A stretch of DNA of 64,000 nt from Patescibacteria group bacterium (GCA_038065075.1 JBBTRQ010000011.1:5924-69923), one strand, 5' to 3'; counted from the stretch's first letter, positions 9,550 to 28,299 are shown. Numbers and translations: made by a program. Notes: generated by a model from the sequence alone, not told the origin.

Positions 9550-9582
9550 CGTATTTAGGAAAATAGGCTAGTTTTGTTCGCT

Positions 9583-11238: not shown

Positions 11239-11693
11239 CGTCGCTGAGATTCCATGAGGGAAACTTCGTGGAATCGATTGCGGCGTTCATCCCGAGCGCT
11301 CAGAGGGAGAAGCCAGATGCCTGCACTCCGAGAAGCACCCCAGAAGCTGAGGCGCGACTCGCGCCCACCTTCCCGCCAGGCGGTCTACTTGATCTACATC
11401 GCCCAGGACCGCGGACTCCTCGCCATGGACTACGGGGGCATCTCCTTCACCCTGCTGGACGAGCTCTACCGCGAGCACATCTACATCTGTGCCCCGGTCT
11501 CGCTTGGAGTCTATTAAGGCGCTTTCAAGCACCCTTCTACGTGCTCACCAACCCTGCTCCGGTCGCATCGAACTTTGGGCGGCTGATACATGCTGGCACA
11601 CGAAAACAGGGGTATCGGGGTTGAGTGTCTTACTGGCAATTTTCGGCTTATGTTCGCCTGTTTCCGGCGAGACAGATATCGTCACCCCTCGAA

Positions 11694-13238
11694 TTATTCG
11701 ACGCCGTATTTAGTATCCGTACCCTTATCAGACACTTTCAAAAAGAGATGGCGGTTAGCACTTACTCGAAACCTCAAATACAGTAGATGGGTCGATGTAC
11801 TGGGATCCGGCCCGCTGATCTCTAAAGTGGGGTGTTCAGCCTGAAGTATTTTTATGACTTCGTCGACTTTCTGACCAACGTCCGACGAGTTGTACAAACG
11901 TGAGTGGACACGCATGGCAAGTTCATTCATCCAGATATCCTCTTCAGAACGAAGCGTCTTTTTCTTTGGCTCAACGACATCCACTGCCTTCTGAAGGACA
12001 AGTATATGTTTTGATGCATCAAAACTATCTGGCGCATTCAGATAATCCTGAGCAGAATCGAGGAACGTTCCACTGAAGTGGAGCACATCTTCATATTCGG
12101 CGATATAAATGTTGTACTCTTCAAGCTTTGCCTTCTGCTCTTTGAGTGACAACTCTTTATCGATTCCTAGATCATCACAGAATGGAGCGAGAATCTCATC
12201 TTTAAATGATTTTTCGTGGCCGGATTTCGGCGCGTCAAAGATGACCCTAGTCTCCTTATCAAAGCTTCGCCACAATTTCCAGAATTGGTATGTCATGTTA
12301 TTTCCACCAGTGCTCACCATAAATACACGACGGCTCCAATCGACCCTATTATCGGTCTTCAGTTTGCCGAAAATAATCTCGTCTGACATTCCTTCAATGA
12401 AAAGTGTAACAGGCGCATAAAGGAACGCGCGCTTGTTTGCATCGAGAAACGGTCCAAGTTTCTCGATCAGAACATCGGCTCCGTTTTCGCTTGCTTGAAT
12501 GATATGTGTATCACGTAGGCGATCCTTCAGATTGAAGTACGAGTAGGTATAGGTATCGGGGTTTCCGACACGAATCATTTCGGGATTATGCGTTGCAAAC
12601 ACGAACTGTTTCCCATAACCTATTTCAGCGTGTATCTCCTCAAGAAGGAATGAAATCATGTCTGGATGGAGATAAAGTTCTGGTTCGTCCACTGCAAGAA
12701 AAAGACACTTTGGGTGGTAAACGTAGGTTAGAAGTAACGACAAACGCCGTAGTCCATCACTTTCGTGTTGAGGTGAATACGATGGGACTTCTTCGTCATT
12801 TTCACGCAGAAACCCCATTACATTTTTCACGCCTCGCTTTTGAAGATTTGGGTAACGACCAAGGTACTTTTGGAGGGCATCACGAATCTTAATTCTGATT
12901 TCTGGATAATCCTCGAGGTGCTGATAGAACGTCTGTCCCGTAACCTCTTCGCTGTCGAGATCCGACTGGCTTGCCGATTTGTCCAAAATTGACTGGCTCT
13001 CCTGATACAGATCGTGTTGTGGCGACGCGGTGATGTACTGTGCAAAATAACCATCACGATTTCGACCGCTATTTGTAATTACTTGCTTCGCCTGTTTGGT
13101 CACGGTTCTAAGAACCAAACTTTTCCCAGAACCATTCGGTCCAAAAAAATAATTGATAGCCTTAAACGTCAGTTTTTTGTCTTGGTGCAAACCATGTGGT
13201 AGGCCGCTCACCTGCGCCTCTTTGAGAAGAAGTTCCAT
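11694..13238 (-). CDS. OLD-family / PARIS(AriAB)-like ABC-type ATPase fused to a Toprim-like nuclease domain (anti-phage defence nuclease)
   Basis: 514 aa. Walker A FGPNGSGKS, Walker B/D-loop LFLAVDEPELYLHPD, H-loop FVFATHNPEMI (AAA_21/ABC-like ATPase). The C-terminal FIEGMSDEIIFGKL...VFMVSTGG...VIFDAP resembles the Toprim E-G...D motifs of OLD nucleases and DUF4435. Confidence 0.6.
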   Translation of the reverse strand: MELLLKEAQVSGLPHGLHQDKKLTFKAINYFFGPNGSGKSLVLRTVTKQAKQVITNSGRNRDGYFAQYITASPQHDLYQESQSILDKSASQSDLDSEEVTGQTFYQHLEDYPEIRIKIRDALQKYLGRYPNLQKRGVKNVMGFLRENDEEVPSYSPQHESDGLRRLSLLLTYVYHPKCLFLAVDEPELYLHPDMISFLLEEIHAEIGYGKQFVFATHNPEMIRVGNPDTYTYSYFNLKDRLRDTHIIQASENGADVLIEKLGPFLDANKRAFLYAPVTLFIEGMSDEIIFGKLKTDNRVDWSRRVFMVSTGGNNMTYQFWKLWRSFDKETRVIFDAPKSGHEKSFKDEILAPFCDDLGIDKELSLKEQKAKLEEYNIYIAEYEDVLHFSGTFLDSAQDYLNAPDSFDASKHILVLQKAVDVVEPKKKTLRSEEDIWMNELAMRVHSRLYNSSDVGQKVDEVIKILQAEHPTLEISGPDPSTSTHLLYLRFRVSANRHLFLKVSDKGTDTKYGVE

Positions 13239-13286
13239 ATCTGTAGTGCAGACTATATCATGCCGTTACAATTCAGAGCTGTAAAC

Positions 13287-13889
13287 TTAGAAAGAATATG
13301 AAATCACTCCACGGACGACGCCTTCGATCCTAAAATCTTTATCGGCAACGAACGGATCGTATTTCTTGTTTTCAGAGATCAGGATGATGGCGTTATCGGA
13401 TTTTTGAATCCGTTTGATTAACGCTTCACCTCGATTTACGCACACGACGATCTCGCCGTTCTGCGCGTCATCTGACTTTTTCACCAGAACGAGATCTTTA
13501 TTATGAATTTTCGGCGTCATCGAATCTCCAGAAGCTCTTACCAGGAATGCACCCCCCGCCGGGAAGCCGAGAATCTTTGTTGAGATCGGGACTTGCTCGA
13601 TAGGGTCGCCGTCGAGGACTGAACCGTTCGGTCCACATTTGGCAAACCCGTAAAGATTCAGGTAGGCCACCTTTGCGTCGCCTGTGCCGGAAACGACCTG
13701 GTAATCCCTAGGGTTAGAAGGATTGCGACGCAGACGCCCCTTTTCTTCGAGCTGACGGATGTGGTGGAGAACTACACTCGGAGAAGAGACTCCGAGCTCC
13801 TCCTGAAGATCACGGATGGAGAGTTGCTCGTGCCGATGCCTTTCCAAGAGAACAAGTAGCTTCGCTTGGGTGGGATGGAGCTCCTGCAT
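13287..13889 (-). CDS. LexA / phage-CI-like repressor (wHTH + S24 peptidase)
   Basis: 200 aa. N-terminal wHTH (LSIRDLQEELGVSSPSVVLHHIRQLEEKGRL). S24 catalytic Ser in ASGDSMTP and Lys in EALIKRI, plus the self-cleavage region. Confidence 0.85.
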   Translation of the reverse strand: MQELHPTQAKLLVLLERHRHEQLSIRDLQEELGVSSPSVVLHHIRQLEEKGRLRRNPSNPRDYQVVSGTGDAKVAYLNLYGFAKCGPNGSVLDGDPIEQVPISTKILGFPAGGAFLVRASGDSMTPKIHNKDLVLVKKSDDAQNGEIVVCVNRGEALIKRIQKSDNAIILISENKKYDPFVADKDFRIEGVVRGVISYSF

Positions 13890-14005
13890 ATGTGGACAAC
13901 TATACGCTGTGGATAACTTTCAGTCAAGAACATCCTTGTATTGTTCTACGATTTGTTCTACTCTCGGAATATGCTCGCCGAAACAGTTGATGGTTCTCGT
14001 CCCGC
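13890..14005. promoter_or_regulatory. Divergent control region between the repressor gene and the + strand module; candidate operator direct repeat TTGTTCTAC x2
   Basis: tattGTTCTACgattTGTTCTACtc at ~13935-13960. CACGTG...CGTGTCACATG quasi-palindrome at ~14023-14048. Confidence 0.3.
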
Positions 14006-14419
14006 ATGCACAGCCGATTAATGGCCACGTGCTTAATTACGTGTCACATGAACGTTGGGACACTCATGCTGGCGCATAACACCAATTCGTCCCATGCATA
14101 TATGGTTCAACCCTATAACGGCCATCATCCCTACACGCAGGTGTGTGTCGGAGGATGGCAATACGCCCTGACCGGCGTGTATTACTGCGGCTACCTCGGA
14201 GCTGACGGACGGCTTCAACCGCTCTACATCGGCCGCGCAATTGGCGACGGCGGAATCCGTGGCCGTCTGCTCGATCATCTCCGAGATGATGTGTGGCCTG
14301 GTGTGACACATTTCGGATTCGCGGTTTGTGCCACTGCGCAAGAAGCTATCACTCATGAAGCGGCGGAGATTCGGCGCTTTCAGCCACGTTTTAACACACA
14401 AGGAAAATCCTATGGCTAA
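14006..14419 (+). CDS. Small GIY-YIG nuclease-domain protein (start uncertain; possibly M33 at 14102)
   Basis: GVYYCGYLGADGRLQPLYIGRAIGDGGIRGRLLDHL...THEAAEIRRFQPRFN fits GIY-(x10)-YIG...R...H...E...N. Its stop overlaps the next start (ATGGCTAA). Confidence 0.5.
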   Translation: MHSRLMATCLITCHMNVGTLMLAHNTNSSHAYMVQPYNGHHPYTQVCVGGWQYALTGVYYCGYLGADGRLQPLYIGRAIGDGGIRGRLLDHLRDDVWPGVTHFGFAVCATAQEAITHEAAEIRRFQPRFNTQGKSYG

Positions 14420-14636
14420 CCAACATGTTCTGAAACGCGAAGACGGCTGGGGTGTACGCCGCGAAAAAGCTTCCCGCGACACCGTCATCGTCCCCACGCA
14501 GAAGGCAGCAGAAAAGATCGCAAAGGAAATCGCCACGAATCAGGGAGGAGATGTCTTTATTCATCGGCAGACGGGCAGCCAATGGCGCGAACGCAACACC
14601 TATGGAAAAATCGACCACAATCCCCCGAGGGGATGA
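14412..14636 (+). CDS. DUF2188-family small protein
   Basis: MANQHVLKREDGWGVRREKASRDTVIVPTQKAAEKIAKEIATNQGGDVFIHRQTGSQWRERNTYGKIDHNPPRG matches the DUF2188 pattern (GW.V.....A......K.eAi..A...A...g.e..IH...G.i....syg.DP.PP.G). AGGAAA Shine-Dalgarno 5 nt upstream of the ATG. Confidence 0.6.
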   Translation: MANQHVLKREDGWGVRREKASRDTVIVPTQKAAEKIAKEIATNQGGDVFIHRQTGSQWRERNTYGKIDHNPPRG

Positions 14637-14994: not shown

Positions 14995-15050
14995 TGTAAT
15001 ACCAGTAGATCGTTCCAACTTCACGTCTACAACGTGGTGTATCACTAATT

Positions 15051-15180
15051 CCGGCTCCGGCCGGTAGGAGGCGCGGTAACGCGCCGAAGAGGCATCGCCT
15101 CGGTCGTGCCCGCTCTGTAGAGCTAGTTCGAAAGTCTATTTGGATTTTTCGTGCTCGCTCTACGGAGCGGGCACTTTTTG
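15051..15180 (+). promoter_or_regulatory. Cluster of four consecutive GC hairpins ending in an 18-bp stem / 33-nt loop hairpin plus T-run (terminator, structured leader, ncRNA or pac/ori candidate)
   Basis: CCGGC-tccg-GCCGG (15051-64). GCGCG-gtaa-CGCGC (15071-84). GAGG-catcg-CCTC. GTGCCCGCTCTGTAGAGC (15106-23) ... GCTCTACGGAGCGGGCAC (15157-74) with one G.U pair, then TTTTT. Confidence 0.45.
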
Positions 15181-15214
15181 TTCCCTCACTAACTTATTCA
15201 TCACATTCAGTCAT

Positions 15215-16597
15215 ATGGCCAAACACAACCTTACTCAACACGACGGCACCAAAATTGCCGTTCAGTACGTCCCGCTCGCTTCCCTGAAGCTCGCGGAATA
15301 CAACCCGCGTCGCCATGACGCGGAGCAAGCCGCCAAGCTCAAGGACGGCATCAAAAAGTTCGGGCTGGTCGACCCGATCATCGTGAACGCGGCTCCCGAA
15401 CGCGAGAACATCATCATCGGTGGTCACTTCCGAGCGGAGATCGCAAAGGAGCTTGGCATGACCGAGGTTCCGGTCGTCTTCGTGAACATACCCGACATTG
15501 GGCGCGAGAAGGAATTGAACCTTCGCCTTAATCGCAACACGGGCGAATTCGACCTGGAACTCCTGGCCGAGTTCGACGAGTCCCTACTCACAGACATCGG
15601 CTTCACAACGAACGAGCTCGACCAAATCTTCGAGGCCGAGGAGACGCCCGAGATGTTCGACCTCAATAAGGAGCTGGCCAAACTCGATATCAAACAGATC
15701 GAGATCCAGAAGGGCGACGTATGGCAACTCGGCGAGAGTCAGCTTATGTGCGGGGATTCAACAGTTGAGGTGGACATGTTCACACTCATGGGTGGCGAAC
15801 GAGCGGACATGTGCTTCACCGATCCTCCATACATCCTCGACTATCTCCATGGGAAGAGAAAGGAGGGTCAAGCTGTCACCGGCTTCGGGGCGAAGCGCAA
15901 TCGCCGCTATCTTGAGACCGATGTTCTGCCGCCCGACTTTACGGAAAAATGGATGGGCAGCGTGGTCAAGGTGGCCGCGTCCAACTTCTCGATCATCGTG
16001 TACGAGAATTGGAAGAATATCCGTACGATCTGGGGCGAGATGGAGAAGTATTGGAAGGTAAAAAACATGATCGTTTGGCATCTCGAGAACCGCCACCAAG
16101 GGTTCTCATCCAAGTACAAATTTTTCAACAAGCACGATATCGCCGTGGTCGGCGCGGGCGGTGACGTGCCGTATAACTTCGATCCCGAAGAGGCACCGCT
16201 CCAGGAGGAATACGAGACAGCGCTTTATGCCATCTCCGGAAAGCCACAATGGGAGCCGTACCAAAAGGGCAAGAAAAACTGTCCGACGGACTTTATCGAG
16301 TTCCGTGCGTCCGATGAGAAGCATTCCGGCCAGGGTGTCATCTTTGGCACCAAGCCGACGGAAATTCTCATCCCGTACATCAAGGTGCTCACGAAACGCA
16401 ATGATATCATCCTTGAACCCTTCGGTGGATCCGGTTCGACGTTGATCGCCGCGACGAAGATGAGTCGCCGATGCCGAATCATGGAAAAGTCGCCGGTGTA
16501 CGCGGAAGTGATTCGCAAGCGTTGGGAAAAACTCACAGGGCAGAAAGCAGTCCGTATTTCGTGCGGCATCTATGGAAAATCCAACCCTACATCCTAA
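15215..16597 (+). CDS. ParB-like nuclease N-terminal domain fused to a DNA (N6-adenine/N4-cytosine) methyltransferase
   Basis: First ATG gives MAKHNLTQHDGTKIAVQYVPLASLKLAEYNPRRHD... (ParB-N/ParB-like nuclease). Motif IV FTDPPY precedes motif I ILEPFGGSGSTLIAA (beta-class amino-MTase order). The track ORF 15140 has an N-terminal extension across the hairpin and is rejected. Confidence 0.8.
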   Translation: MAKHNLTQHDGTKIAVQYVPLASLKLAEYNPRRHDAEQAAKLKDGIKKFGLVDPIIVNAAPERENIIIGGHFRAEIAKELGMTEVPVVFVNIPDIGREKELNLRLNRNTGEFDLELLAEFDESLLTDIGFTTNELDQIFEAEETPEMFDLNKELAKLDIKQIEIQKGDVWQLGESQLMCGDSTVEVDMFTLMGGERADMCFTDPPYILDYLHGKRKEGQAVTGFGAKRNRRYLETDVLPPDFTEKWMGSVVKVAASNFSIIVYENWKNIRTIWGEMEKYWKVKNMIVWHLENRHQGFSSKYKFFNKHDIAVVGAGGDVPYNFDPEEAPLQEEYETALYAISGKPQWEPYQKGKKNCPTDFIEFRASDEKHSGQGVIFGTKPTEILIPYIKVLTKRNDIILEPFGGSGSTLIAATKMSRRCRIMEKSPVYAEVIRKRWEKLTGQKAVRISCGIYGKSNPTS

Positions 16598-17030
16598 CGC
16601 TCGGCGCACACAGGCAAAGCGGGACGCGGAGAAAGTTCGGCTTGTCGAGGCATTTAGGAAAACGCCCATCGTTCAACTCGCTTGCCAGTCGGCCGGTGTC
16701 CAGAGTCGATCGAGCTATTACCGGTGGCGCAAGGAGGATCCCGAATTCGCCAAGGCCTGTGACGACGCGATTGGCGAGGGTGTTGAACTTGTCTCGGATC
16801 TTGCAGAATCCAAACTTATCCAAGCCATCAAGGAGCAGAACTACTCCGCGATTAGTTTCTGGCTGCGCCATCGGCACCCCGCCTACGCTGACAAACTTAA
16901 CATTCAAGCCAAGGTAGAAGTCGATAAGCCATTAACTTCGGAGCAAGAGGCGGTGATCCGTCGCGCCATCGAGCTTGCCAGGCTCCCACCACCTTATGAC
17001 CAATCCAAACCTTCTACCCCTGCCGAATGA
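16572..17030 (+). CDS. Putative phage terminase small subunit (HTH DNA-binding)
   Basis: 152 aa. N-terminal HTH with SRSSYYRWRKEDPEFAKACDDA, typical of TerS. It lies immediately upstream of and overlaps the TerL gene. Confidence 0.55.
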   Translation: MENPTLHPNARRTQAKRDAEKVRLVEAFRKTPIVQLACQSAGVQSRSSYYRWRKEDPEFAKACDDAIGEGVELVSDLAESKLIQAIKEQNYSAISFWLRHRHPAYADKLNIQAKVEVDKPLTSEQEAVIRRAIELARLPPPYDQSKPSTPAE

Positions 17031-18519
17031 GGACCCTGAGACGGTGAGCGACCTCGTGCACCTCATGATTCGCGACCAGCGGATCCGTACCGAGGTGACG
17101 CGCGGAAGCCATATGTGGTTCTTTCTGACCTACCTCGCGGATTATGTCCGCTATCCCTTCGCGCCGTTCCATCGCGAGATGTTCGCCCTATCTGAGGACG
17201 ACACCCTGCCAATGTTGGTACTCATGGCGTTCCGCGGGTCGGCCAAGTCTACAATCTTCACTCTCTCGTATCCGATTTGGGCGATCCTCGGACAACAGAA
17301 AAAGAAGTTCATCGTCATCCTCGGCCAGACGCAGCAACAGGCACGACAGTATCTCGCCAACCTCAAACGTGAGCTGGAGCGCAACGATCTGCTCCGGCGA
17401 GATCTCGGTCCATTCGAGGAGCGCGACGAGGAATGGAGCGCTGGAAGCATCGTCATTCCTAAATACGATGCCCGCATCACCGCCATTTCCTGCGAGCAAG
17501 GCATCCGTGGACTTCGTCACGGTGCATACCGCCCCGACCTCATCATCTGCGACGACCTGGAGAACCTCGACAGCGTGCGGACGCGCGATGGCCGCCAAAA
17601 ACTCTACCAATGGCTCATGGGCGAGGTCATTCCTGCTGGGGACGTGAACACCCGTATCGTAATCGTCGGCAACTGCCTGCACGATGACGGAATCATGATG
17701 CGGCTCCAGCGAGAGATCACGGCTGGCGCAAGGTTGGGCGTGTTCCGATCGTTCCCACTTCTTGATGACGAAGGTATTTGTTTGTGGCCAGGCAAGTTCC
17801 CAGATCCCGAATTGGTCGAGTCATTTAAGCGGTCGGTGGTGGACGAGATCACCTGGCAACGGGAGTACTTATTAAGAATCATCGCTGGGGTCGATACTGT
17901 GATCCATCGCGACTGGATTCAGTATTACGACGAGGCGGAGATGGCAGCGTGCGGAGAGAAGTTCCGCTACGTGGGGATCGGCATCGATTTGGCGATCTCC
18001 GACAAGGATACCGCCGACTACACCGCCATGGTGACGGCACACGTGTACGGACGAATCAAAAAACTTCGAATCTTCATCCAACCGCATCCGACAAATGAGC
18101 GGCTTGGGTTTCCGGATACCTACGAGCGAGTAAAGGCCATGGCAAATCTCCACACAGACAAAGCAAAGCTCAAAATTTTCATCGAAGATGTAGGCTATCA
18201 AGGCGCACTAATTCAGATGCTCGAAAAAGACGGGTACCCGGCCGAGGGCGTGAAACTTCACGGTGCGGATAAGCGATCTCGTCTTGCGCTTACGAGTCAT
18301 CTGATCAAAAACGGGGTAATTCGCTTTCCTCGGATTGGCGCAGAGGAATTGATCGAGCAACTGACCGGCTTCGGCTCGGAACGCCACGATGACCTCGCGG
18401 ATGCATTCTCGAGTTTGATCATCAAAATCAAAGAGCATGACAAACCCGCGCCGTGCATCGGGTTCATCTCGTTCGGATGGGACGGATCGGTGCGAGATAC
18501 GCGGATTGAACTGGACTAA
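16996..18519 (+). CDS. Phage terminase large subunit (ATPase + nuclease)
   Basis: Walker A-like MAFRGSAKST, Walker B LIICDDLEN, and C-terminal RNaseH-like nuclease region (IGIDLAISDKDTADYTAMV...). The track ORF starts at TTG 16975; the first ATG is at 16996. Confidence 0.85.
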   Translation: MTNPNLLPLPNEDPETVSDLVHLMIRDQRIRTEVTRGSHMWFFLTYLADYVRYPFAPFHREMFALSEDDTLPMLVLMAFRGSAKSTIFTLSYPIWAILGQQKKKFIVILGQTQQQARQYLANLKRELERNDLLRRDLGPFEERDEEWSAGSIVIPKYDARITAISCEQGIRGLRHGAYRPDLIICDDLENLDSVRTRDGRQKLYQWLMGEVIPAGDVNTRIVIVGNCLHDDGIMMRLQREITAGARLGVFRSFPLLDDEGICLWPGKFPDPELVESFKRSVVDEITWQREYLLRIIAGVDTVIHRDWIQYYDEAEMAACGEKFRYVGIGIDLAISDKDTADYTAMVTAHVYGRIKKLRIFIQPHPTNERLGFPDTYERVKAMANLHTDKAKLKIFIEDVGYQGALIQMLEKDGYPAEGVKLHGADKRSRLALTSHLIKNGVIRFPRIGAEELIEQLTGFGSERHDDLADAFSSLIIKIKEHDKPAPCIGFISFGWDGSVRDTRIELD

Positions 18520-19508
18520 AATTCGTCTAGATTCAATCCTGGAACCTGATAAAGTTGTTCAATCGCTTTACGCTCCTCGTCTGACAAAAGTTGTACCCCG
18601 CGATTATAAAGAAATTTTACGAATTCATTTACATCCTGGTCATCATGAACCCAATGGATCTGATTATTTTGGATTGCGGCTTGAAGCATCGATCGCAATT
18701 CGTCATCGGTAAATTCTGAAAACTTGCTCAATACAGCAACTGATTTATGTGTAGTCTCAAAATTTCTAGTGTTCGCGAAACCGTCAATAGCGAGGCTTCT
18801 GGCAAGCTCATCGGCCAGTTGAATATTAGGGTACTTATCTCTAAAGAACTGCGATAGGTCAGGATAAAGATATACTTGGGAATTTTTCTTGATTTTCCAT
18901 TCATCTTTCAGGCAATCAAGTATTTCGCCATCGTGTAAAGGTGAGCGGTAATCAGAATCTTTTGAAATGAGATACAAGTCTTCTTTTTGTGGGACGTTGG
19001 CTAAAAGCGAAAGCCAGCAAATCGCGTCTCCGTATGAATTATTTTTTCCTGGCGGGTGTCCGAGGTCCATTCTTCTGACAGCCTTATCGATAATTGTTGC
19101 TGTTTCCAGAACAATTGCCTTAGAGAATATTTCTTCCAAGGTTTTATCAGCTTTTAAACCATCCTGAGCTGCCTCCTCTCTGATGTTCTGTACCGCCTTC
19201 GAGATGAGTTTAGAGAATTCTCTCGCTGCCACGCTCAAAGCAGTGTGGTTTGCGTCGAGCTGAACCAATTGAGGAAATTTCGAGACGGTGTTCCTCAATT
19301 GGAATTCCCGAATGGCATCGGCGATTTTCGTCTCTCTGTTTCGTCGAAATTCAGACCTCGCATGGTCAGGTAAATACAAAACGATACCGCGTTGATCAAG
19401 TGCTGTGACGAGTTTTTTTAATGCCTCAAGATCGTCATCGGTATAATGATAAAAAGAGAGGTATATGTTTGTATCAATGAAGACGTGTAATGCCACAAGA
19501 AATTTCAC
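18516..19508 (-). CDS. PIN-like domain protein (DUF4935-like), last gene of the type I R-M operon
   Basis: N-terminal VFIDTNIYLSFYHYTDDDLEALKKL (PIN-type acidic motif). GTG start at 19508 directly abuts the hsdS stop codon (19509-19511). 330 aa. Confidence 0.55.
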   Translation of the reverse strand: MKFLVALHVFIDTNIYLSFYHYTDDDLEALKKLVTALDQRGIVLYLPDHARSEFRRNRETKIADAIREFQLRNTVSKFPQLVQLDANHTALSVAAREFSKLISKAVQNIREEAAQDGLKADKTLEEIFSKAIVLETATIIDKAVRRMDLGHPPGKNNSYGDAICWLSLLANVPQKEDLYLISKDSDYRSPLHDGEILDCLKDEWKIKKNSQVYLYPDLSQFFRDKYPNIQLADELARSLAIDGFANTRNFETTHKSVAVLSKFSEFTDDELRSMLQAAIQNNQIHWVHDDQDVNEFVKFLYNRGVQLLSDEERKAIEQLYQVPGLNLDEF

Positions 19509-20693
19509 CTATAAAAGCTGTGCGGTCAAAGCTGAAAATGCTTCGTCGATCAATTGTCCACGATGCAGTTGTTTTCCTCGGATTTTTGCCGAATTTTCTA
19601 CAAGCTCAACAAATTCAACCTGCTTATCTTTTGGAGGCACCAAAATATCCAAACCCGTCAGTGCATCGGTGTTAAGACTCTGAACAGTCGCTCCGGTTTT
19701 GATCAGTGTTAACAGATGTCTTTCTAAACCACGCAATTGCCAATACAGAAAAATCGGATTGATCTCTGCCGAAGGGATCAGAGCTTTGATATCTTGGTTA
19801 ATCGCCACTGGTCTAGCTGTGATCGCGATCGGTACCGTATGCTTCAAGATTCCACTGCGAGTAACCACCAATAATGAATTGGGAGGTATCAGATTTGTAG
19901 CTGATTCCGCAATTGCTTCTTGAGTTATGTGATCCTCAGTATCCTCAATAAACTCATCCCCCATGTCCTTCGGGGAGACCCATGGAATCACTCCGTTCCA
20001 AAATTTTCCCATTTGTTTCGAAGGTGTACCCCCACCCTTAACGGTTACCACGTCGCTCAATTTTTTTGTCAAAAAGTTTTGGTCAATTGAGTTACCAAAC
20101 ATTTGGTCAAACAATGCAGGAGCGAAGTCAGACAAAATTTTGTATGCGCTATCACGTTTTGTTTTCAATTCCAGTACCTGATCCAAAGTCGACACAATTT
20201 GCTTCTGTGTCTTCAAAGGAGGAACGGGAATTAACAACTTTCCGTAACGCCGTGTCTCTAGATTTCTAATTCCTGACGTCTGTCTCTGAAGGGAGTTGGT
20301 AACGCCTTTCATATACAGATTCTGGAGGCAGTGCCAGAGGAATCGCGGATCAATCATCCCTGCGTCTTTTACTCGAATCCGAGCAGTAAAGTTACTATAG
20401 GTATACCCAGGTTTGTCCAATTGAAAGAGCGCAACTCGACCCACAGGTTGTTTGGGCCCACCACCAGATTTTTCTAAAATAATATCACCGGGCTTTAGCT
20501 CCCTTGTAGAAAACTGTCGATCTTCAACGAGATGCTCTGCCACATCATCAAAATCCAAATGACCACCCGCTTTAAAATTTGTATTACGGATAATTCTCGC
20601 CTGACGCATCGTTCCTGATTTACCAATCCAAAGACCACCCGTTATGTCACATAGTTCATCCAGATTTTTTTCGATATACGGTGAACCATGCAT
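19509..20693 (-). CDS. hsdS: Type I restriction-modification specificity subunit HsdS
   Basis: 394 aa with two target-recognition domains and central/C-terminal conserved helices. ATG at 20693 lies 1 nt after the hsdM stop. Confidence 0.85.
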   Translation of the reverse strand: MHGSPYIEKNLDELCDITGGLWIGKSGTMRQARIIRNTNFKAGGHLDFDDVAEHLVEDRQFSTRELKPGDIILEKSGGGPKQPVGRVALFQLDKPGYTYSNFTARIRVKDAGMIDPRFLWHCLQNLYMKGVTNSLQRQTSGIRNLETRRYGKLLIPVPPLKTQKQIVSTLDQVLELKTKRDSAYKILSDFAPALFDQMFGNSIDQNFLTKKLSDVVTVKGGGTPSKQMGKFWNGVIPWVSPKDMGDEFIEDTEDHITQEAIAESATNLIPPNSLLVVTRSGILKHTVPIAITARPVAINQDIKALIPSAEINPIFLYWQLRGLERHLLTLIKTGATVQSLNTDALTGLDILVPPKDKQVEFVELVENSAKIRGKQLHRGQLIDEAFSALTAQLL

Positions 20694-20694
20694 A

Positions 20695-22170
20695 TCAAAC
20701 CTGTTTTAGGAGATTCTCGACTTCCGATACGATTTCCTTCTCAAGCTTAACGACCTCTCGCAAAATTTCCTTTGGATCACGGTGATCGATGGCTGTTGTT
20801 TCTATGGTTCGATAGCGACCAATAGCCAAACTTAAATCAGAATCCTTTTTAATGGTTTCTGCACTGATCAGGAAACTATTTACACTGGATTTGCGTTCCG
20901 GCCATGCCGCAAGCACATCCGGAATATTGTTTTTATTGATGGGTTGTCGTCGATCATCTAAGGTGTAACCATCGGCTTTGAGGTCGTAAAACCAAACGTC
21001 CTGTGTCGCACCACCCTTCTTGAAAATCAAAACACCCGTTGCGACACCGGAGTATGGCTTGAACACTCCTGGTGGCAAATTAATCACAGCCTGAAGTTCG
21101 CAAGTGTCGAGCAAAAGTTCGCGAATTTTTCTGGCAGCACGGTTTGTTGCAAAAAGCACACCATTCGGAACAATCACAGCTGCCCGACCGCCGCCCGTAA
21201 GGTGGTCAATAAACCACTTACAAAACAAGAGCTCTGTGCTAGTGGTGAGCAAGTTGATGTCTGCAAGGATGCTTTCTTGCTGGATTGATCCAGCGAAAGG
21301 AGGATTCGCAAGAATCACATCGTAGCGGTCGCTATAGTGACGAGGATCAGTGAGCGGGTTATAAAAAAGGATTCGTGCCTTCTCAAGCTGGTGCAGGTAA
21401 AGGTTCATGATTGCGACTTTCACCATGTTCGCGTCGTTGTCGAAGCCGGTGAACGCCTGCTCCTCGAGGAATTTCCATTGGGCAGTTGATAGCTCATCAC
21501 CTGTGTTTTGACCCTTGGTCTGCGAGCCTTTTGAGGTATGCGTACGCTTGATGTGATCGAAAGCGGCAATCAAAAATCCACCCGTACCACAAGCTGGATC
21601 ACAGATGCGTTCACCCGGCTGAGGGGCTACCATTTCCACCATCATCGCGATGATGTGTCGCGCTGTGCGGAACTGACCGGCGTTACCCTGCATTGAAAGG
21701 TTGCTGAGCAGGTACTCATATGCGTCTCCCTTGATATCGATTCCTTGAAGCGGCTTGAGTTCCATCGAATGAATCGTCTGGATGACGGCACGGAGCGTTG
21801 GGCGATCGTAGATTTTTAGGGTCGCGCGTGCGAACAGAAGTTTTCCTGTCTCGGATAGGTTCGGAAGCTCGTGGATATTCTCAATCGCGGCGCGGGCGGC
21901 ATCAAAAAGGGCGTCACCGGTTAGGGTGACGAAATTGCCCCAGCCGTACTTCGACCACTCGCCTGAAAAAATCGGCTTGTAGTTCTTGTCGAGACGAGCA
22001 AGTTGCTCGTCTCGTTCGGAAAGGATTCGCAAGAACAACAGATAAGAAATCTGCTCGATCGCATCAATCGGATTATTGACCCCTCCTGAGTAAAGTGAGT
22101 CCATCAGCTGGTCGATCTTTGACTTGAGATCGGAGGAAGTAAAAAGCTCTTGGGAACGCATTGATACCAT
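20695..22170 (-). CDS. hsdM: Type I R-M N6-adenine DNA methyltransferase HsdM
   Basis: NPPFAGS motif IV, motif I DPACGTGGFLIAA, HsdM N-terminal domain. Confidence 0.9.
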   Translation of the reverse strand: MVSMRSQELFTSSDLKSKIDQLMDSLYSGGVNNPIDAIEQISYLLFLRILSERDEQLARLDKNYKPIFSGEWSKYGWGNFVTLTGDALFDAARAAIENIHELPNLSETGKLLFARATLKIYDRPTLRAVIQTIHSMELKPLQGIDIKGDAYEYLLSNLSMQGNAGQFRTARHIIAMMVEMVAPQPGERICDPACGTGGFLIAAFDHIKRTHTSKGSQTKGQNTGDELSTAQWKFLEEQAFTGFDNDANMVKVAIMNLYLHQLEKARILFYNPLTDPRHYSDRYDVILANPPFAGSIQQESILADINLLTTSTELLFCKWFIDHLTGGGRAAVIVPNGVLFATNRAARKIRELLLDTCELQAVINLPPGVFKPYSGVATGVLIFKKGGATQDVWFYDLKADGYTLDDRRQPINKNNIPDVLAAWPERKSSVNSFLISAETIKKDSDLSLAIGRYRTIETTAIDHRDPKEILREVVKLEKEIVSEVENLLKQV

Positions 22171-22176
22171 AGAATT

Positions 22177-24579
22177 TTAAAGCTCAGCCAGATCCGCTTG
22201 GCGAACGATTGGGGTAAGACGCAGGGCATCGAATACTTCATCACGTTCGTTGAATGCGAGCAGACCTTCAAGTCCGCCGAGGGCGTTGAATTGACTGGTG
22301 TTAAAAATGGTCATGTCCTTTGCGAAGAAGCGTCGGCGAGCATCCTTATCTTCCACCAACATCTTCACAATAGCGTCCACCCAGCGCTGATCGTTAAACC
22401 GCAGATTGAACTGCGATGCGATAGTTTCGACAGTATCCTCGACAATCCGCGCCTTCGTTGGGATCGGCTTTTTCCCAAGGGGACCGTAGACGAAGGTCGG
22501 CACCGGGGCTGGGATACCGTAAGCCTGTACAAGTTTGCCAGGGGTGTAGAACATTTTCGGTCGGTTGAAAAACCGTTCCCCCATAATGGTTTCAATAGCG
22601 TCATCGTCCTCGTCATCAACTGCGTTTTTGAATTCTCCATCCTTTTTGTATAGATCCTTTATGTCTTTTTCGTATGAGCCGCGGAATGTCATAACATCGA
22701 CCTTTTCGCCGTCGGGTCCGACGATTTTAATCTCGGTGGTTTGGACAATATCGGTGCCAGTCCAGACAGGAATCTCTGGCTTGAGATGGCCTCCAGCCGC
22801 CGGTTCAGCTACAGTTACACCTTCTCCAGTAGGCAGAGCCTCGGACTTGGAGCCTTTCTTTCCTTTTGCAGGTTTTACCTCTCGCGGTACCACCAGCGGA
22901 ACGGTATAGTCATATTTTTCTTGGAAATACTCGGCTACGCCGCAAAAATCCAAAATCAGGAAATTTTCCTTCTTGTATGCCGTGTTGCCAACTTTAAACG
23001 TATGAAGACGCGTCCCGCGTCCTTTGATCTGGATGTACTCAGTCGGGGAAAAGATCGGGCGAGCAAGGACGATATTGAGAATGTCCGTGCAGTTATACCC
23101 AGTCGAAAGCATGTCGACGGAAACAGCAACGCGCTCATTGCGTTTCCCATCACGGAAATCTTTTGCGATTGCCGCTGCATCTTGGATGCGGGAAGTGATG
23201 GTGAGTGCAACCTCGGGCTGGATGGCGTTCAGCATCTTTGTCAGAGTCGTTGCATGGGTTTGGTTCACAGCAAAAATAATGGTTCTGCCGATTTGACCAT
23301 CGGGAGCACGAAGCGCATTTTTGAAAAACTGCTCGCAGATAATTTTGTTACGCTCGGGAGTGAAGATTTTCCGCTCAAGATCGCGAATCTTGTAGCTCTC
23401 TTCCTGCTCGTTGACCGTGACAGTCCATCCGCCTTCCTCGAGCGCCTTGGTAGTGATTTCAGAACGGATATCCCAAATTTTAGGCAGGCAAAGGAATGGA
23501 CCCTCGGGATCCTTTACCGCATCGACGATGTCATATCGGAACGTCGGCAACCCAGGCTTACAGCCGAAATAGTGATACGTGTCCCGTAGTTGGCGAGCTT
23601 CAAGAGCTTTGGGATTCTCCTCCTCAAGTTGAGTGAGATCGACATTTTTTAAATATGCCTTCGGGGTTGCCGTTAGACCAACACGTGTGGCCTGGAAATA
23701 CTGAAGGACTTCACGCGCGTCACCGTAGATAGAACGATGCGCTTCATCGTTAACCACAAGGTCAAAGTGATACGGTGTAAATGCCTCACGGTAACGCCTA
23801 TCAACTAAAAGCGACTGAATGGTGGCGATCACAACGCTCGAAGCCATGAGCTCAGCAGGCTTGTGACGTGCAGTTTTAAAAATGACCGGCTTGTAATCGC
23901 GCAGGATAAATTCGAATGTCTCCAGCGTTTGCTTGGCAAGCTCAATTCGGTCAACGACAAAAAGCACGCGCTCGGCGTTACGTGTCATGAGGAAACGCCG
24001 GATCATCGCAGCACACATAAGTGTTTTCCCAGTACCCGTCGCCATTTCCAAAAGGAATTTCCTTCGGCCGGATTCATCGAACTGTTTGGCAACTTCGTCG
24101 AGTGCACGAATTTGGTAGCCGCGAACCTTAAGTGCCGGATCGATACCAGCAAGCGAATTTGGAGTGAGTCTTTCAGTAAGCAACGGTCTTGGTGGTTGAA
24201 GGTTTTTTAATTTCAACCGTTCAAGATCGGCTCGGGATGGAAGTGATTCGATGCGATATGCATCTTCCTGATTCTTGCGCGTGAAATTCCAAAAATAATG
24301 AACCGTCCCATTTGAGAGGATGACAAATGGCGCTTTTAAATTATCGGCATACCCACGCGCCTGATCCTTTGCATCGTATGGATCAAGATCTTCGCGCTTC
24401 GCTTCAAGGATGCAAAGCGGAAAGCCGCGATCATCTTTCAGAATGTAGTCAGAGCGCCCGGTCGTTGAGGAAACTTCCAATGTGACCTGTTGCGTATCGA
24501 GCAGATTCCAGCCGCTCCCTTCAAGTGCCTTATCGATTAAGATGCGGGAAAAAGCTTCGGGTTGTCCTTTTGCGACCAT
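22177..24579 (-). CDS. hsdR: Type I restriction endonuclease subunit HsdR
   Basis: 800 aa. N-terminal PD-(D/E)xK nuclease (DYILKDDRGFPLCILEAKRE), helicase motif I EMATGTGKT, motif II VVNDEAHR, motif VI QIKGRGTR. Confidence 0.9.
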   Translation of the reverse strand: MVAKGQPEAFSRILIDKALEGSGWNLLDTQQVTLEVSSTTGRSDYILKDDRGFPLCILEAKREDLDPYDAKDQARGYADNLKAPFVILSNGTVHYFWNFTRKNQEDAYRIESLPSRADLERLKLKNLQPPRPLLTERLTPNSLAGIDPALKVRGYQIRALDEVAKQFDESGRRKFLLEMATGTGKTLMCAAMIRRFLMTRNAERVLFVVDRIELAKQTLETFEFILRDYKPVIFKTARHKPAELMASSVVIATIQSLLVDRRYREAFTPYHFDLVVNDEAHRSIYGDAREVLQYFQATRVGLTATPKAYLKNVDLTQLEEENPKALEARQLRDTYHYFGCKPGLPTFRYDIVDAVKDPEGPFLCLPKIWDIRSEITTKALEEGGWTVTVNEQEESYKIRDLERKIFTPERNKIICEQFFKNALRAPDGQIGRTIIFAVNQTHATTLTKMLNAIQPEVALTITSRIQDAAAIAKDFRDGKRNERVAVSVDMLSTGYNCTDILNIVLARPIFSPTEYIQIKGRGTRLHTFKVGNTAYKKENFLILDFCGVAEYFQEKYDYTVPLVVPREVKPAKGKKGSKSEALPTGEGVTVAEPAAGGHLKPEIPVWTGTDIVQTTEIKIVGPDGEKVDVMTFRGSYEKDIKDLYKKDGEFKNAVDDEDDDAIETIMGERFFNRPKMFYTPGKLVQAYGIPAPVPTFVYGPLGKKPIPTKARIVEDTVETIASQFNLRFNDQRWVDAIVKMLVEDKDARRRFFAKDMTIFNTSQFNALGGLEGLLAFNERDEVFDALRLTPIVRQADLAEL

Positions 24580-24668
24580 ATGTCCGAATTATGCCTGAAA
24601 AGAGCCTTATCTGCAATGAGTTTTTGTCCCTTTTGTTACCTACAAGTAGGGCTAGGCACCCAGGACAG

Positions 24669-24694
24669 ATGTGGCATTAATGTCCATGCCACAT
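24669..24694. promoter_or_regulatory. Perfect 9-bp inverted repeat ATGTGGCAT-n8-ATGCCACAT, 12 nt upstream of the recombinase start (candidate operator / recombinase-binding site)
   Basis: Read directly from the sequence. It lies in the divergent region between hsdR (-) and the recombinase (+). Confidence 0.4.
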
Positions 24695-24705
24695 AACGGC
24701 CATTT

Positions 24706-26037
24706 ATGAACAATCCAGCCCAACAAGCAGTACCAGTGCCACAGCCGATCCGCTACTGCCTTTACTCACGCAAGAGCACCGAGCAAGACGAGCAACAATC
24801 CCTCTCGATTGAATCCCAAGTGAAAGAAATGCTCGCGGCGGCGGAGCGGGACGGGCTTTTGGTAACGGAGATCCGGCGCGAGAGTCACTCGGCTAAGGCG
24901 TCTGGCCAGCGACCCGAGTTTAACCGGCTCATCGATGATATACGCCTTCAACGGTTTGACGGCATCCTTGCCTGGGCGCCAGACCGCTTGAGCCGTAACG
25001 CGGGAGACCTGGGAACCATCGTGGACTTAATGGATCAAGGTGTTATCCGCGAAATTCGCACCAATGGATCCCGGTTCACGAATTCGCCGAGCGATAAGTT
25101 CATGCTCATGATGCTCTGCAGCCAGGCCAAGCTAGAAAACGATAACAAGAGCATCAACATCAAGCGCGGGCTCAAGGCGAAAGTCGAAATGGGCTATCGG
25201 CCTAACATGGCTCCGATGGGGTACTTGCATGACAAGAATGCTGACAAGGGTACGAAGCGGATTTACATCGATCCCGAACGCGCGCCGGGCATCCGTGAGA
25301 TGTTTGAAAAAGTCGGATATCGATTCTGGTCAGGGCGACAGGTTAAACGATGGCTTGATAACGATGCAATGTTCAGGTCACGAACGGGTAGAAAGGTTGC
25401 GTTGAGTAGTATCTACATGATGCTTTCAAATCCATTTTACACCGGCCGATACGAATTCCCGATGAAGAGCGGGAAGTGGTACAAGGGCAAGCATGACGCG
25501 ATCATCTCACAAGAGCTATTCGATCGGGTGCAGGAGAACCTCAGTGTGATCCCCAAAGGTACACATGGATCAAAGGAGTTCTCGTTCACCAGATTGTTCT
25601 CCTGTGGCGCGTGCGGAGCCGGCATTACGGCCGAGGAGAAGGTGAAGCGGCTCAAGGACGGTACGGTCAAACGGTATGTGTACTATCATTGCACAAAACA
25701 GGTCGATAGGAATTGCCGTGAGTCGTTCCTGCGTGAGGAGTCTCTCATCGAGCAGCTGCTGAAGATCGTCGATAAGCTTAGCATCGATGAACTTGGGATG
25801 GCCGAGATCGTAAAAGCAGAGATGGAAAAATTTCAACGGCTCCTTGTGGTCGTGTCCAAGCTGGATTCGAACCAGCAAAACATCATGGTTCTTCCGAAAC
25901 TGGACGTACGAGCCTGCGCGAAACTGATCCTTCAGGACGGATCAAAAGAAGACAAGCGGAAACTGCTCGAGCAACTCAAGAGCCGCATCATCCTGAAGGG
26001 GGGCAAGCTGAGTATAGAAAAGAAGAGAAAAACCTAA
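24706..26037 (+). CDS. Large serine recombinase (resolvase-like catalytic domain + recombinase domain + Zn-ribbon)
   Basis: N-terminal YCLYSRKSTEQDEQQSLSIESQ (catalytic Ser). Recombinase domain. C-terminal CGACGAGI...YYHCTK zinc ribbon and coiled-coil. 443 aa. Confidence 0.9.
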   Translation: MNNPAQQAVPVPQPIRYCLYSRKSTEQDEQQSLSIESQVKEMLAAAERDGLLVTEIRRESHSAKASGQRPEFNRLIDDIRLQRFDGILAWAPDRLSRNAGDLGTIVDLMDQGVIREIRTNGSRFTNSPSDKFMLMMLCSQAKLENDNKSINIKRGLKAKVEMGYRPNMAPMGYLHDKNADKGTKRIYIDPERAPGIREMFEKVGYRFWSGRQVKRWLDNDAMFRSRTGRKVALSSIYMMLSNPFYTGRYEFPMKSGKWYKGKHDAIISQELFDRVQENLSVIPKGTHGSKEFSFTRLFSCGACGAGITAEEKVKRLKDGTVKRYVYYHCTKQVDRNCRESFLREESLIEQLLKIVDKLSIDELGMAEIVKAEMEKFQRLLVVVSKLDSNQQNIMVLPKLDVRACAKLILQDGSKEDKRKLLEQLKSRIILKGGKLSIEKKRKT

Positions 26038-26051
26038 GGGTCGCCAAATCG

Positions 26052-26086
26052 AAAACCCGCATTCCATGAGGAGTACGGGTTTTCTT
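26052..26086 (+). terminator. Rho-independent terminator after the recombinase gene; its loop contains the right copy of the 11-bp repeat
   Basis: AAAACCCG-cATTCCATGAGGagta-CGGGTTTT-CTT. Confidence 0.6.
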
Positions 26087-26531: not shown

Positions 26532-26560
26532 TTGACAAAAGCGCTATTTTCTGGTATCTT
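26532..26560 (+). promoter_or_regulatory. Candidate sigma70-type promoter for the 26595 gene
   Basis: TTGACA - 17 nt - TATCTT, ~35 nt upstream of the ATG. Confidence 0.3.
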
Positions 26561-26594
26561 TTTACGTTAAATTAGCAAAAACTATTTAATCTCT

Positions 26595-28286: not shown

Positions 28287-28299
28287 AATAATCCTCGTC

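Follow-up and report, generated by a model that had tools for sequence, protein, structure and literature searches.

A 14.6-kb mobile island placed by a serine integrase in a small host gene of a groundwater Candidatus Uhrbacteria genome

What kind of element carries terminase genes and several anti-phage systems without any virion structural gene, and where does it begin and end? This question is raised by a locus in a 64,000-nucleotide stretch of DNA (the window) from a groundwater Candidatus Uhrbacteria genome (CPR/Patescibacteria). The first-pass annotation had proposed an integrated island of about 15 kb, to be checked against relatives with an empty site, and this comparison confirms the island: it occupies positions 11490-26132 (14,643 bp), with junctions at 11489|11490 and 26132|26133. 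In the related Candidatus Uhrbacteria genome L005, the site is uninterrupted and a single ORF of about 153 aa lies between the same two flanking genes, while its counterpart in the window is split in two by the island. Seven intact homologs of the split ORF, all about 153 aa long and all from Uhrbacteria, were found, and the window copy is broken at ...W|SK... with respect to them. The N-terminal piece (11317..11489, plus strand; the B arm of attL), preceded by the ribosome-binding site GGGAG at 11305-11309, aligns with residues 1-~55 of the seven homologs; its last ~120 nt (11371-11489), though collinear, have diverged to an unusual extent, and its frame continues into the island up to a stop at 11517. 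The C-terminal piece (26133..26436, plus strand; the B' arm) shows 76% amino acid identity with L005 and is collinear with the seven homologs from the break onward; a terminator scan placed the host terminator 3' of the ORF at 26456-26487. The GC-rich segments at the two ends (63.6% and 63.2% GC), formerly taken to be non-host DNA, are the two halves of this split ORF, which is itself GC-rich (65.4% GC in the intact L005 copy).

The overlap common to both junctions is only 4 bp long, TCTG (11486..11489 in attL and 26129..26132 in attR), and reads CCTG in the uninterrupted L005, where homology to the window restarts at 26130-26133. This is the size expected in the case of a large serine recombinase (LSR), and the caveat in the first-pass annotation that serine integrases leave tiny identical cores was correct. 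The same annotation had nevertheless tentatively taken two copies of ATTCCATGAGG to be the att core of an island running from 11249 to 26071. The window does contain two copies of this sequence and no more, at 11249-11259 and 26061-26071, one close to each end: the left copy begins 10 nt past the stop codon (11236-11238) of a 554-aa gene, and the right copy lies in the apex of the terminator hairpin following the recombinase gene. Since the left copy is part of a non-coding host stem-loop (11238..11298, plus strand) also present in L005, it is host DNA located 241 bp outside the island; in the uninterrupted L005, it is found with one mismatch, along with the ~240 bp to its right. The stem-loop is identical at 59/60 positions between the window and L005, versus 75-80% in the flanking coding DNA, and its predicted fold has an energy of -36.4 kcal/mol (z = -4.3). 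The right copy lies 61 bp inside the island, host homology restarting only at 26130, and the homologous P arms at the island ends of loci L098 and L100 lack it. The 64-kb window contains as many as 958 different 11-mers in two or more copies, and an 11-mer common to the two terminal intergenic stretches was obtained in 304 of 5000 shuffles (p ~0.06). The junction is put at TCTG by three relatives. The idea that ATTCCATGAGG is the att core is thus refuted by the empty-site and attP comparisons, and we give it practically no chance of being right.

The right end of the island carries the gene of the large serine recombinase (24706..26037, plus strand; Pfam Resolvase 4e-21, Recombinase 1e-12, Zn_ribbon_recom 9e-5; PHROG integrase 1e-65), which is related to the TP901-1 and A118 integrases on the basis of matches to PDB structures. 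The catalytic Ser24 and the four Zn-ribbon cysteines are invariant in 29 homologs. Downstream, the P arm (26038..26132) contains the recombinase terminator hairpin (26052-26083) and a second hairpin, CCTGTTCC..GGAACAGG (~26095-26118), shows 94% identity with L098 11392-11438, and ends in ...GTGATGGTTCTG. The P' arm at the left end (11490..11693), which consists of about 200 nt of non-coding DNA, is collinear with L098 11439-11540 and L101 159-345. Copies of a subterminal repeat are present at ~11541-11565 in the left end and at 26085-26108 in the right one, and a match of this quality was reached in 0/500 shuffles. In L098, the right-end sequence runs straight into the left-end sequence, forming an attP-like P|P' junction between two elements (L098/L099), which is a junction within a tandem array and not an excised circle. 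In L098 and L101, independent attL junctions pass into the P' arm at the base where this happens in the window, and the P arm of L100 likewise stops where that of the island does, abutting a tRNA-Gln gene. Both att arms of the island are intact and conserved. The recombinase domains, the uninterrupted attB in relatives, the short core and the contiguity of P and P' elsewhere are those of an LSR element: an attP (...GTGATGGTTCTG|TGCCCCGGTCTCGC...) was recombined by the right-end LSR with a target within a small ORF specific to Uhrbacteria, which was split in the process. A search for a circular contig or an attP/attB junction of this strain yielded none.

The relatives of this recombinase insert at the 3' ends of tRNA genes: in addition to the tRNA-Gln gene of L100, a tRNA gene is located 95-190 nt 3' of the recombinase in three other loci. 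Since the first ~25 nt of the C-terminal ORF piece contain GATTCGAACC, which resembles a tRNA T-loop when compared with the L100 junction, the insertion site in the window seems to be a secondary target that resembles a tRNA. Gene-interrupting elements with serine integrases are also known among Firmicutes prophages or prophage remnants with structural genes, such as the skin element in sigK, SPbeta in spsM and A118 in comK. The island resembles them in its TP901-1/A118-type LSR, its insertion inside a protein-coding gene and its tiny core overlap, but differs from them in that the usual target of its family is the 3' end of a tRNA gene, the ORF hit looking secondary. To our knowledge, the split ORF has not been linked to any regulated gene reconstitution.

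The switch in gene content described in the first-pass annotation was borne out. A LexA/CI-like repressor consisting of a winged-helix DNA-binding domain and an S24 autopeptidase (13287..13889, minus strand; Pfam Peptidase_S24 6e-24, LexA_DNA_bind 8e-9; PHROG transcriptional repressor 1e-26) has a promoter-like site at 13927-13899 according to a promoter scan, and members of its family also occur upstream of the packaging module in six other loci. Divergent from it are two small early ORFs (14006-14419 and 14452-14994, plus strand) with no assigned family: Pfam, PHROG and PADLOC searches gave no match, and their AlphaFold2 models (pLDDT 39-42) were unusable; a homolog of the second, with 58% identity, is present in L009. 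These ORFs are the only candidates for an excision factor (recombination directionality factor) and may otherwise be regulators. A strong intrinsic terminator with 28-nt arms and a T-run (15106..15185, plus strand), recognized as an inverted repeat in the sequence and by the terminator scan, separates them from the packaging operon. This operon, on the plus strand, comprises a ParB-N domain fused to an N6/N4 DNA methyltransferase (15215..16597, 15215 being the annotated start and the longest ORF beginning at 15140; Pfam N6_N4_Mtase 1e-19, ParB_N 3e-9; PHROG_498 2e-80), with orthologs showing 72-82% identity in three loci including L009; the small terminase subunit TerS (16572..17030; PHROG terminase small subunit 5.6e-11), which has orthologs in 47 loci and matches Pfam HTH_Tnp_1_2 at 1.3e-5 (25.8 bits, under the 27.9-bit cut-off); and the large subunit TerL (16975..18519; PHROG_38 4e-76). 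TerL is full length with its active-site residues intact, its Walker A and B motifs and nuclease acidic residues being invariant across 28 homologs, and its profile matches T7 maturase B and another TerL structure.

The remaining genes, all on the minus strand, are defence cargo. Convergent with terL lies the gene of a PIN_12-domain nuclease (18516..19508; Pfam PIN_12 1.4e-18; PADLOC candidate PDC-S34 1e-10), followed by a Type I restriction-modification (R-M) operon (19509..24579) composed of hsdS (19509-20693; Pfam Methylase_S), hsdM (20695-22170; N6_Mtase/HsdM_N) and hsdR (22177-24579; ResIII/HSDR_N), which match the PADLOC Type I S, M and R models, respectively. The system is a Type I R-M system in its composition: an HsdR with helicase and nuclease domains, an HsdM N6 methyltransferase and an HsdS with two target-recognition domains, encoded in one operon. 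The cargo on the left side encodes an OLD-family-like protein with a clear ATPase and a putative TOPRIM nuclease (11694..13238; Pfam AAA_21 6e-18), in which the Pfam OLD-like_TOPRIM domain scored 1.9e-4 and 22.3 bits, just under the 23.2 cut-off; the PADLOC AriA and Old models both match (Old 4.8e-13), as does the OLD nuclease structure 6p74 in the PDB (2e-4).

The first-pass annotation had spoken of packaging genes without structural genes, which holds true. No island ORF has a Pfam or PHROG match to virion structural genes or fragments thereof, and no member of the phage-class portal, capsid and protease families, the identities of which were verified, is present in the ORF set of window positions 8001-30000, which includes the island. 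Neither a replication gene nor an excision factor was identified among the island ORFs with Pfam and PHROGs, two ORFs being without annotation. No signs of decay (truncation or frameshift) were detected, every island gene being full length.

The island is one member of an extensive modular family of patescibacterial elements, characterized by conserved P/P' ends and recombinase, a methyltransferase, TerS, usually TerL, a variable cargo slot between TerL and the recombinase, and the lack of portal, capsid, tail and lysis genes. This order is common to about 60 relatives, in which TerL identity ranges from 41 to 87% and no portal or capsid gene was found; in 17 minimal loci, the recombinase lies directly 3' of TerL. 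The seven contexts picked by TerL similarity all include the methyltransferase, TerS, TerL and cargo, and usually the recombinase. In a survey of 80 IMG/VR loci, none of the 46 recombinase-linked TerLs was portal-linked, and the smallest clade containing all 46 had 61 members, likewise with no portal-linked one, all 25 of the portal-linked phage TerLs sampled falling outside it; the surveys of this family are based on crude ORF calling, loci chosen by sequence patterns and neighbour-joining without bootstrap support. When 80 metagenome loci were anchored on the recombinase instead, a portal or capsid gene was found in none, and TerL was present upstream of the recombinase in 21 of the 52 loci with at least 3 kb of upstream sequence; others carry the methyltransferase, TerS and the recombinase with no room for TerL. 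The nearest relatives of the recombinase (83-85% identity) come from elements in which no terminase module is seen (L098 element 1 and one further locus), so that the recombinase module can be separated from the packaging module. Members of this family, no earlier description of which was found in the literature, could be satellites of phages that infect these ultra-small bacteria.

The reading we prefer, with a probability of roughly 0.55, is that of an intact integrative mobile element, satellite-like and helper-phage-dependent, which would use its own TerS and TerL to fill helper procapsids with its DNA. The S24 repressor would keep the element silent until DNA damage or helper-phage infection, upon which expression would begin with the early genes and proceed to the packaging operon beyond the strong terminator. 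The element would excise, its DNA would be pre-methylated by the methyltransferase, and TerS and TerL would package it into procapsids supplied by the helper. This helper would probably be an HK97-type phage of the kind that encodes the closest phage relative of the island TerL. As long as the element is at rest, the Type I R-M system, the PIN nuclease and the OLD-like protein may guard both host and element from phages. For packaging, TerL would need to engage a portal that is not its own, and a TerL without portal or capsid genes lies outside the satellite types described so far. It might be argued instead that the structural and lysis modules of a formerly complete temperate phage gave way to the R-M and PIN genes, leaving an immobile or merely excisable defence island with a terminase as leftover: the CI-like repressor, ParB-methyltransferase, TerS and TerL are typical phage genes in phage order, the convergent non-phage gene immediately after TerL is what a deletion would leave, and the nearest TerLs outside the islands belong to real phages with portal and capsid. 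Independent decay would not, however, repeatedly yield the same capsid-less product in some 60 relatives, and neither the invariant catalytic residues of TerL and the recombinase, the intact ORFs and att arms nor the single TerL clade free of portal-linked members is in line with it. We take this history to be quite unlikely. Because the genes are intact, dozens of diverged relatives repeat the architecture without capsid genes and their TerLs form a clade of their own, the evidence favours the "satellite-like" half of the earlier formulation over the "decayed prophage" half.

A possible, if doubtful, alternative is that the terminase-methyltransferase module of a mobile island serves interference with phage packaging, or DNA processing and release for competence uptake, and not its own transfer. 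The module is always accompanied by defence cargo, no replication gene was found with Pfam and PHROG, and natural competence is common in CPR bacteria. Known satellites block helper packaging by means of TerS-like proteins, and one satellite is reported to move by competence (PMC13376191; 10.1101/2025.02.27.640495, the latter on terminase-targeting defence). On the other hand, the conservation of a full catalytic TerL, with both ATPase and nuclease, goes beyond what interference needs, the TerS-only variants fit the classic satellite logic of redirecting the helper's TerL, and the methyltransferase, when searched with PADLOC, matched methyltransferase models only.

In comparison with known satellites, the preferred reading of a helper-dependent element finds parallels in the phage-inducible chromosomal islands (PICI) and the minimalist satellites (PICMI), which are likewise small integrated islands with an integrase at one end, a divergent master repressor, their own TerS, anti-phage cargo and no capsid or tail genes; the strategy of helper-terminase redirection is matched by TerS-only relatives (L107, L114 and L174). 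Unlike these, the island has a serine instead of a tyrosine integrase, a full TerL and a ParB-methyltransferase, a CPR host and a putative helper dependence, and neither a primase/replicase, as judged from Pfam and PHROG searches of its ORFs, nor capsid-size-redirection genes were detected. The capsid-forming PICIs (cfPICIs) are the sole described satellite class with both terL and terS in the core (PMC10085698), but they also encode the major capsid protein, portal, protease and head-tail adaptors, whereas only terS and terL of this set are present in the island, and its ~60 relatives have none of these structural genes. The PLE of Vibrio cholerae and the VEIMEs of marine virus particles, the latter also carrying TerS, methyltransferases and R-M or Abi cargo (PMC9618062), are satellites with LSR integration, the resemblance of the island to them being one of integrase type and gene content; they use the helper's TerL, and their packaging has been demonstrated, whereas that of the island is only inferred. 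In P2-like phages and P4-like satellites, defence hotspots are fixed slots with interchangeable anti-phage systems (PMC9122126). The island has such a slot and, as with the P2 old gene, an OLD-like nuclease on a temperate element, but its backbone, integrase type and host phylum are all different. An OLD-like gene is also present at the equivalent position in one relative (L017).

The island was found to extend from 11490 to 26132 (14,643 bp, 49.9% GC), between host genes encoding UvrA and a 554-aa protein on the left and a 563-aa protein, L19, guanylate kinase and RluD on the right. These limits are based on an uninterrupted site in L005, the genome of a related Candidatus Uhrbacteria, and on the junctions present in four loci carrying related large serine recombinases (LSRs; L098 to L101), and they both confirm and precisely map the island proposed in the first-pass annotation. 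The window is nearly identical to the Patescibacteria metagenome-assembled genome GCA_964359885.1. No empty site was found in the same species: an exact look-up of the right-flank protein yielded only near-identical strains, all of which carry the island, and an exact-protein look-up of the left-flank gene yielded zero matches. In L005, a species-level relative (75–80% nucleotide identity), both flanking genes are kept, the island is absent and a single small ORF lies between them; two alignment blocks match L005 positions 17–2679 to 8749–11370 and positions 2778–4954 to 26130–28287. Seven further intact homologs of this ORF (~153 aa, 61–79% identity) occur in Uhrbacteria or on unnamed short contigs, and its N- and C-terminal pieces in the window join at ...EIH.W/SK... 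(the slash marking the junction). TCTG is present at both junctions (11486–11489 and 26129–26132), the uninterrupted L005 position reading CCTG; the true 2-bp crossover is not resolvable within this 4-bp overlap, and the earlier caveat about the very small core left by serine integrases was correct.

In L098 and L099, where the LSR is 84% identical, the sequence following the recombinase matches the right end of the island (94% identity over 47 nt) and runs straight into that of its left end, the junction reading ...GTGATGGTTCTG/CGGCCCGGTCT... L098 also supplies an attL at the same base as in the window, and a third attL is present in L101 (LSR 81% identical), followed by ~190 nt collinear with 11490–11690. 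The right arm of L100 (LSR 83% identical) stops at the same base, against a tRNA-Gln gene. The predicted attP and attB are GTCGTGATGGTTCTG/TGCCCCGGTCTCGCTTGG and GAGCACATCTACATCTG/GAGCAAGAGATTCGAACC, respectively, and no clear palindromic symmetry was detected around the crossover in either reconstructed site. An excised circle and an assembly artefact were considered as sources of the intact attP of L098 and rejected, since two elements lie in tandem at tRNA-Gln there and this attP is the junction between them; none of the comparison loci L018–L183 showed the terminal overlaps of a circular contig. Long imperfect direct repeats between the right end of the island and the diverged left host segment were likewise rejected, 131 of 500 shuffles being equally good.

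Several features were observed around the junctions. A ~25-nt direct repeat, TG(C/G)TCACC(AA)CCCTG(C/T)TCCGGTCGC, lies inside both ends of the island (~11541–11565 and 26085–26108); it was reached by 0 of 500 shuffles and is conserved in L098. These repeats, together with a CCGGTC motif immediately past the crossover, may be bound by the recombinase or by an accessory factor. In the N-terminal host fragment, the final ~120 nt adjoining the island (11371–11489) are far more diverged from all the homologs than the rest of the gene; they carry an 18-nt insertion and are in frame and weakly collinear (beating 998 of 1000 shuffles), and a co-transferred donor flank or local decay are possible explanations. 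L003, a contig of the same strain from Hainich groundwater, terminates with its position 1 at 26024, within the final codons of the recombinase gene and ~110 bp short of the att junction; population heterogeneity may account for this break in the assembly near the edge of the island.

The boundaries had previously been placed, as a hypothesis, at two 11-bp repeats proposed as candidate att sites. The sequence ATTCCATGAGG indeed occurs exactly twice in the window (11249–11259 and 26061–26071), the left copy beginning 10 nt past the stop codon of the 554-aa gene and the right one lying in the apex of a hairpin 3' of the recombinase gene. This repeat is statistically unremarkable, since 958 different 11-mers are present at least twice in the window and an 11-mer common to both terminal intergenic stretches was obtained in 304 of 5000 shuffles. 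The left copy is host DNA, 241 bp outside the island, and the right one, 61 bp inside it, is missing in the homologous arms of L098 and L100, which refutes their role as att sites. The left copy lies within a host stem-loop (11238–11286) folding at -36.4 kcal/mol (z = -4.3), and the stem-loop region (11238–11298) shows 59/60 identity between the window and L005, as compared with only 75–80% in the neighbouring coding DNA. This non-coding region just 3' of the 554-aa gene, which carries no U-tract, could be a conserved regulatory or structural RNA or DNA element. The end segments described as GC-rich and non-host-like (63.6% and 63.2% GC) each turned out to be one half of the split host ORF, the intact L005 ORF having a GC content of 65.4%. 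The mapping therefore corrects the annotation: a host gene is split at the island, and the GC-rich end segments are host, not foreign.

The gene content of the island was checked using Pfam, PHROGs and PADLOC. On the minus strand, an OLD-like ATPase/TOPRIM nuclease (11694–13238) and a LexA/CI-like S24 repressor (13287–13889) are followed, on the plus strand, by two small ORFs of unknown function (14006–14994), a ParB-N6/N4 DNA methyltransferase (15215–16597), TerS (16572–17030) and TerL (16975–18519). The cargo consisting of a PIN_12 nuclease (18516–19508) and the Type I R-M genes hsdS, hsdM and hsdR (19509–24579) lies on the minus strand, and the LSR gene (24706–26037) on the plus strand. The Walker A/B and nuclease residues of TerL, as well as the catalytic serine and zinc-ribbon cysteines of the LSR, are invariant across homologs, and the LSR matches the TP901-1/A118 integrase type. 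The two early ORFs yielded nothing usable from Pfam at E values up to 1 or from single-sequence AlphaFold2 (pLDDT 39–42); a GIY..YIG-like motif seen by eye in 14006–14419 had no HMM support and is not claimed here. Neither a replication gene nor a directionality factor was identified among the island ORFs, and the Rfam and tRNA scans of the island gave no match. L002 is the assembly of a near-identical strain (99.9% identity, 7x coverage), in which the gene calls for hsdS (3260–4017, corresponding to ~19840–20600 in the window) and hsdR (5584–7985, ~22160–24565 in the window) are both broken in two; frameshifts in this Type I R-M cargo, or errors in its assembly, could be the cause.

Family members often have a tRNA gene (Gln, Ser or Glu) within 95–190 nt past the recombinase, on the opposite strand. 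The end of the P arm (right end of the island), GTGATGGTTCTG (reverse complement CAGAACCATCAC), resembles a tRNA 3' end, and consequently direct repeats of ~10–12 bp flank the tRNA-integrated relatives, GATGGTTCTG being present at attL and at the P-P' junction of L098. The B' arm (host side) in the window, GAGCAAGAGATTCGAACCGAATCT, contains a T-loop motif, GATTCGAACC, that is also present in the tRNA-Gln of L100 at a nearly equal distance from the crossover, and we infer from this resemblance that the split host ORF is probably a tRNA-like secondary site. Insertion into a coding gene is also known in the skin, SPbeta and A118 elements. In L098 (8650–12540) and also in L099, two related elements stand in tandem at tRNA-Gln(ttg), in the order attL, 196 aa, 88 aa, LSR, P-P' junction, a 200-aa remnant and a P arm abutting the tRNA. 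Owing to this mimicry of the tRNA 3' end by the P arm, the tRNA-Gln site seems to stay targetable once occupied.

More than 3,400 TerL homologs were obtained at E <= 1e-20, many of which are on Patescibacteria contigs up to 590 kb long. Seven independent contexts with 55–87% TerL identity were read, and all of them carry a gene of unknown function (~130–280 aa), an N6 methyltransferase, TerS and TerL, followed by variable cargo (Type I R-M, DUF4357/GIY-YIG, MarR/MFS/ADH genes, copper ATPases, or almost none); an orthologous LSR is present in four of the seven (45–51% identity in L012 and L013). IMG/VR scans with a single TerL or recombinase protein gave distant matches only, or none, and an alignment was required: 80 loci were thus found by TerL alignment and studied with crude ORF calling and BLASTP clustering. 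They fall into two classes. The first carries methyltransferase(s), TerS, TerL, 0 to 10 cargo genes and the LSR; 46 TerLs are LSR-linked, 17 of them with the LSR directly 3' of TerL. In the second, the genes 3' of TerL encode a portal-MuF fusion, a protease and an HK97 capsid protein (identities verified with Pfam and PHROGs). In six loci of the island class (L021, L023, L024, L028, L031 and L038), two tandem TerL paralogs of ~520 aa each precede the recombinase, and two separate family islands occur on single IMG/VR contigs of 25–55 kb (3300032737_000190, L022 and L049; 3300033402_000781, L051 and L056; 3300014205_009253, L050 and L058).

When 89 TerLs were placed in a neighbour-joining tree, the smallest clade to take in every LSR-linked TerL had 61 members and included no portal-linked TerLs, all 25 of which lie outside it. 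A second survey of 80 metagenome loci, anchored on the LSR, avoids selecting for TerL: neither portal nor capsid was found in any of the 80 loci, and of the 52 loci having at least 3 kb upstream, 21 have a co-directional TerL there. Some loci (L107, L114, L174 and L110) carry the methyltransferase, TerS and the LSR with no room for TerL, giving minimal elements of ~4 kb, and others lack both modules, like element 1 of L098; the closest LSRs belong to elements showing no visible terminase module. Among the cargo of other relatives are reverse transcriptases, Type III and Type IIG R-M systems and DUF2779; the recombinase context of L181 has a different cargo set and does not show the target gene split here.

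The island is an LSR-type insertion with defined attL, attR and attP, intact repressor, packaging and cargo genes, and an architecture common to a family. It had been suggested to be a prophage remnant or a satellite-like element. If it were a decayed prophage, its relatives would have lost their virion genes repeatedly and independently, and such decay would not give one conserved, catalytically intact, monophyletic architecture. The comparative sequence evidence therefore favours a modular family of integrative elements with packaging genes and no virion genes. The capsid-less TerL clade and the invariant catalytic residues argue against the remnant; a satellite-like LSR island that carries terminase genes and belongs to a large family is the more likely reading, and this part of the suggestion is retained. 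We tentatively put at about 0.4 the probability that the island and its relatives form a large, undescribed family of CPR/Patescibacteria phage satellites, that is, small serine-recombinase elements at tRNA or tRNA-like sites with their own TerS, usually TerL and a ParB-methyltransferase, and no capsid genes, which would hijack CPR-phage procapsids and move defence, R-M or metal-resistance cargo between reduced-genome hosts.

In such satellites, the S24 repressor, which has a promoter-like site (13927–13899) divergent from the early ORFs, would silence the element until DNA damage or infection occurs, and the strong terminator at 15106–15185 might gate the methyltransferase-TerS-TerL operon. 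After excision, TerS and TerL would package the island into helper-phage procapsids and the methyltransferase would protect its DNA, while the Type I R-M, PIN and OLD-like genes would defend the lysogen.

The integrase-repressor-TerS-cargo logic is common to the island and to PICIs, PICMIs, PLEs and marine virion-encapsidated elements, and PLEs and some of the marine elements also use a serine recombinase (PMC9618062); all these elements depend on the TerL of a helper, however, whereas the island has its own. Among the satellites described, terL is a core gene only in the capsid-forming PICIs, alongside capsid, portal and adaptors (PMC10085698), all of which are absent from the island. According to a 2025 preprint (10.1101/2025.02.15.638363), it "is unknown" whether the viruses of CPR or DPANN hosts also have satellites. 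A limited literature search on Patescibacteria, terminase and serine recombinase together yielded no paper, and we could not find any published description of this large family. If the satellite reading is true, no satellites of CPR hosts would have been reported before these, and their architecture, with TerL and no capsid, would be new among satellites. The CPR/Patescibacteria have tiny genomes, CRISPR is mostly absent from them, and little is known of the ways in which they gain and share defence genes. The island and its relatives offer att sites that are exactly located, together with a packaging module and a well-delimited slot for cargo, making excision (junction reads), encapsidation (virome data) and TerL-portal compatibility testable, and the family recombinases are natural serine integrases with inferable attP/attB pairs.

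Elsewhere in the window, a tRNA-Ile gene with the anticodon UAU (30644–30720) has a tRNA-Val(GAC) gene as its neighbour (31411–31487). Between 37000 and 38000, the GC content falls to 41.7% over a methyltransferase gene (37074–37979, minus strand) inside a glycosyltransferase/Wzy cluster, which looks like a typical low-GC surface-polysaccharide locus.
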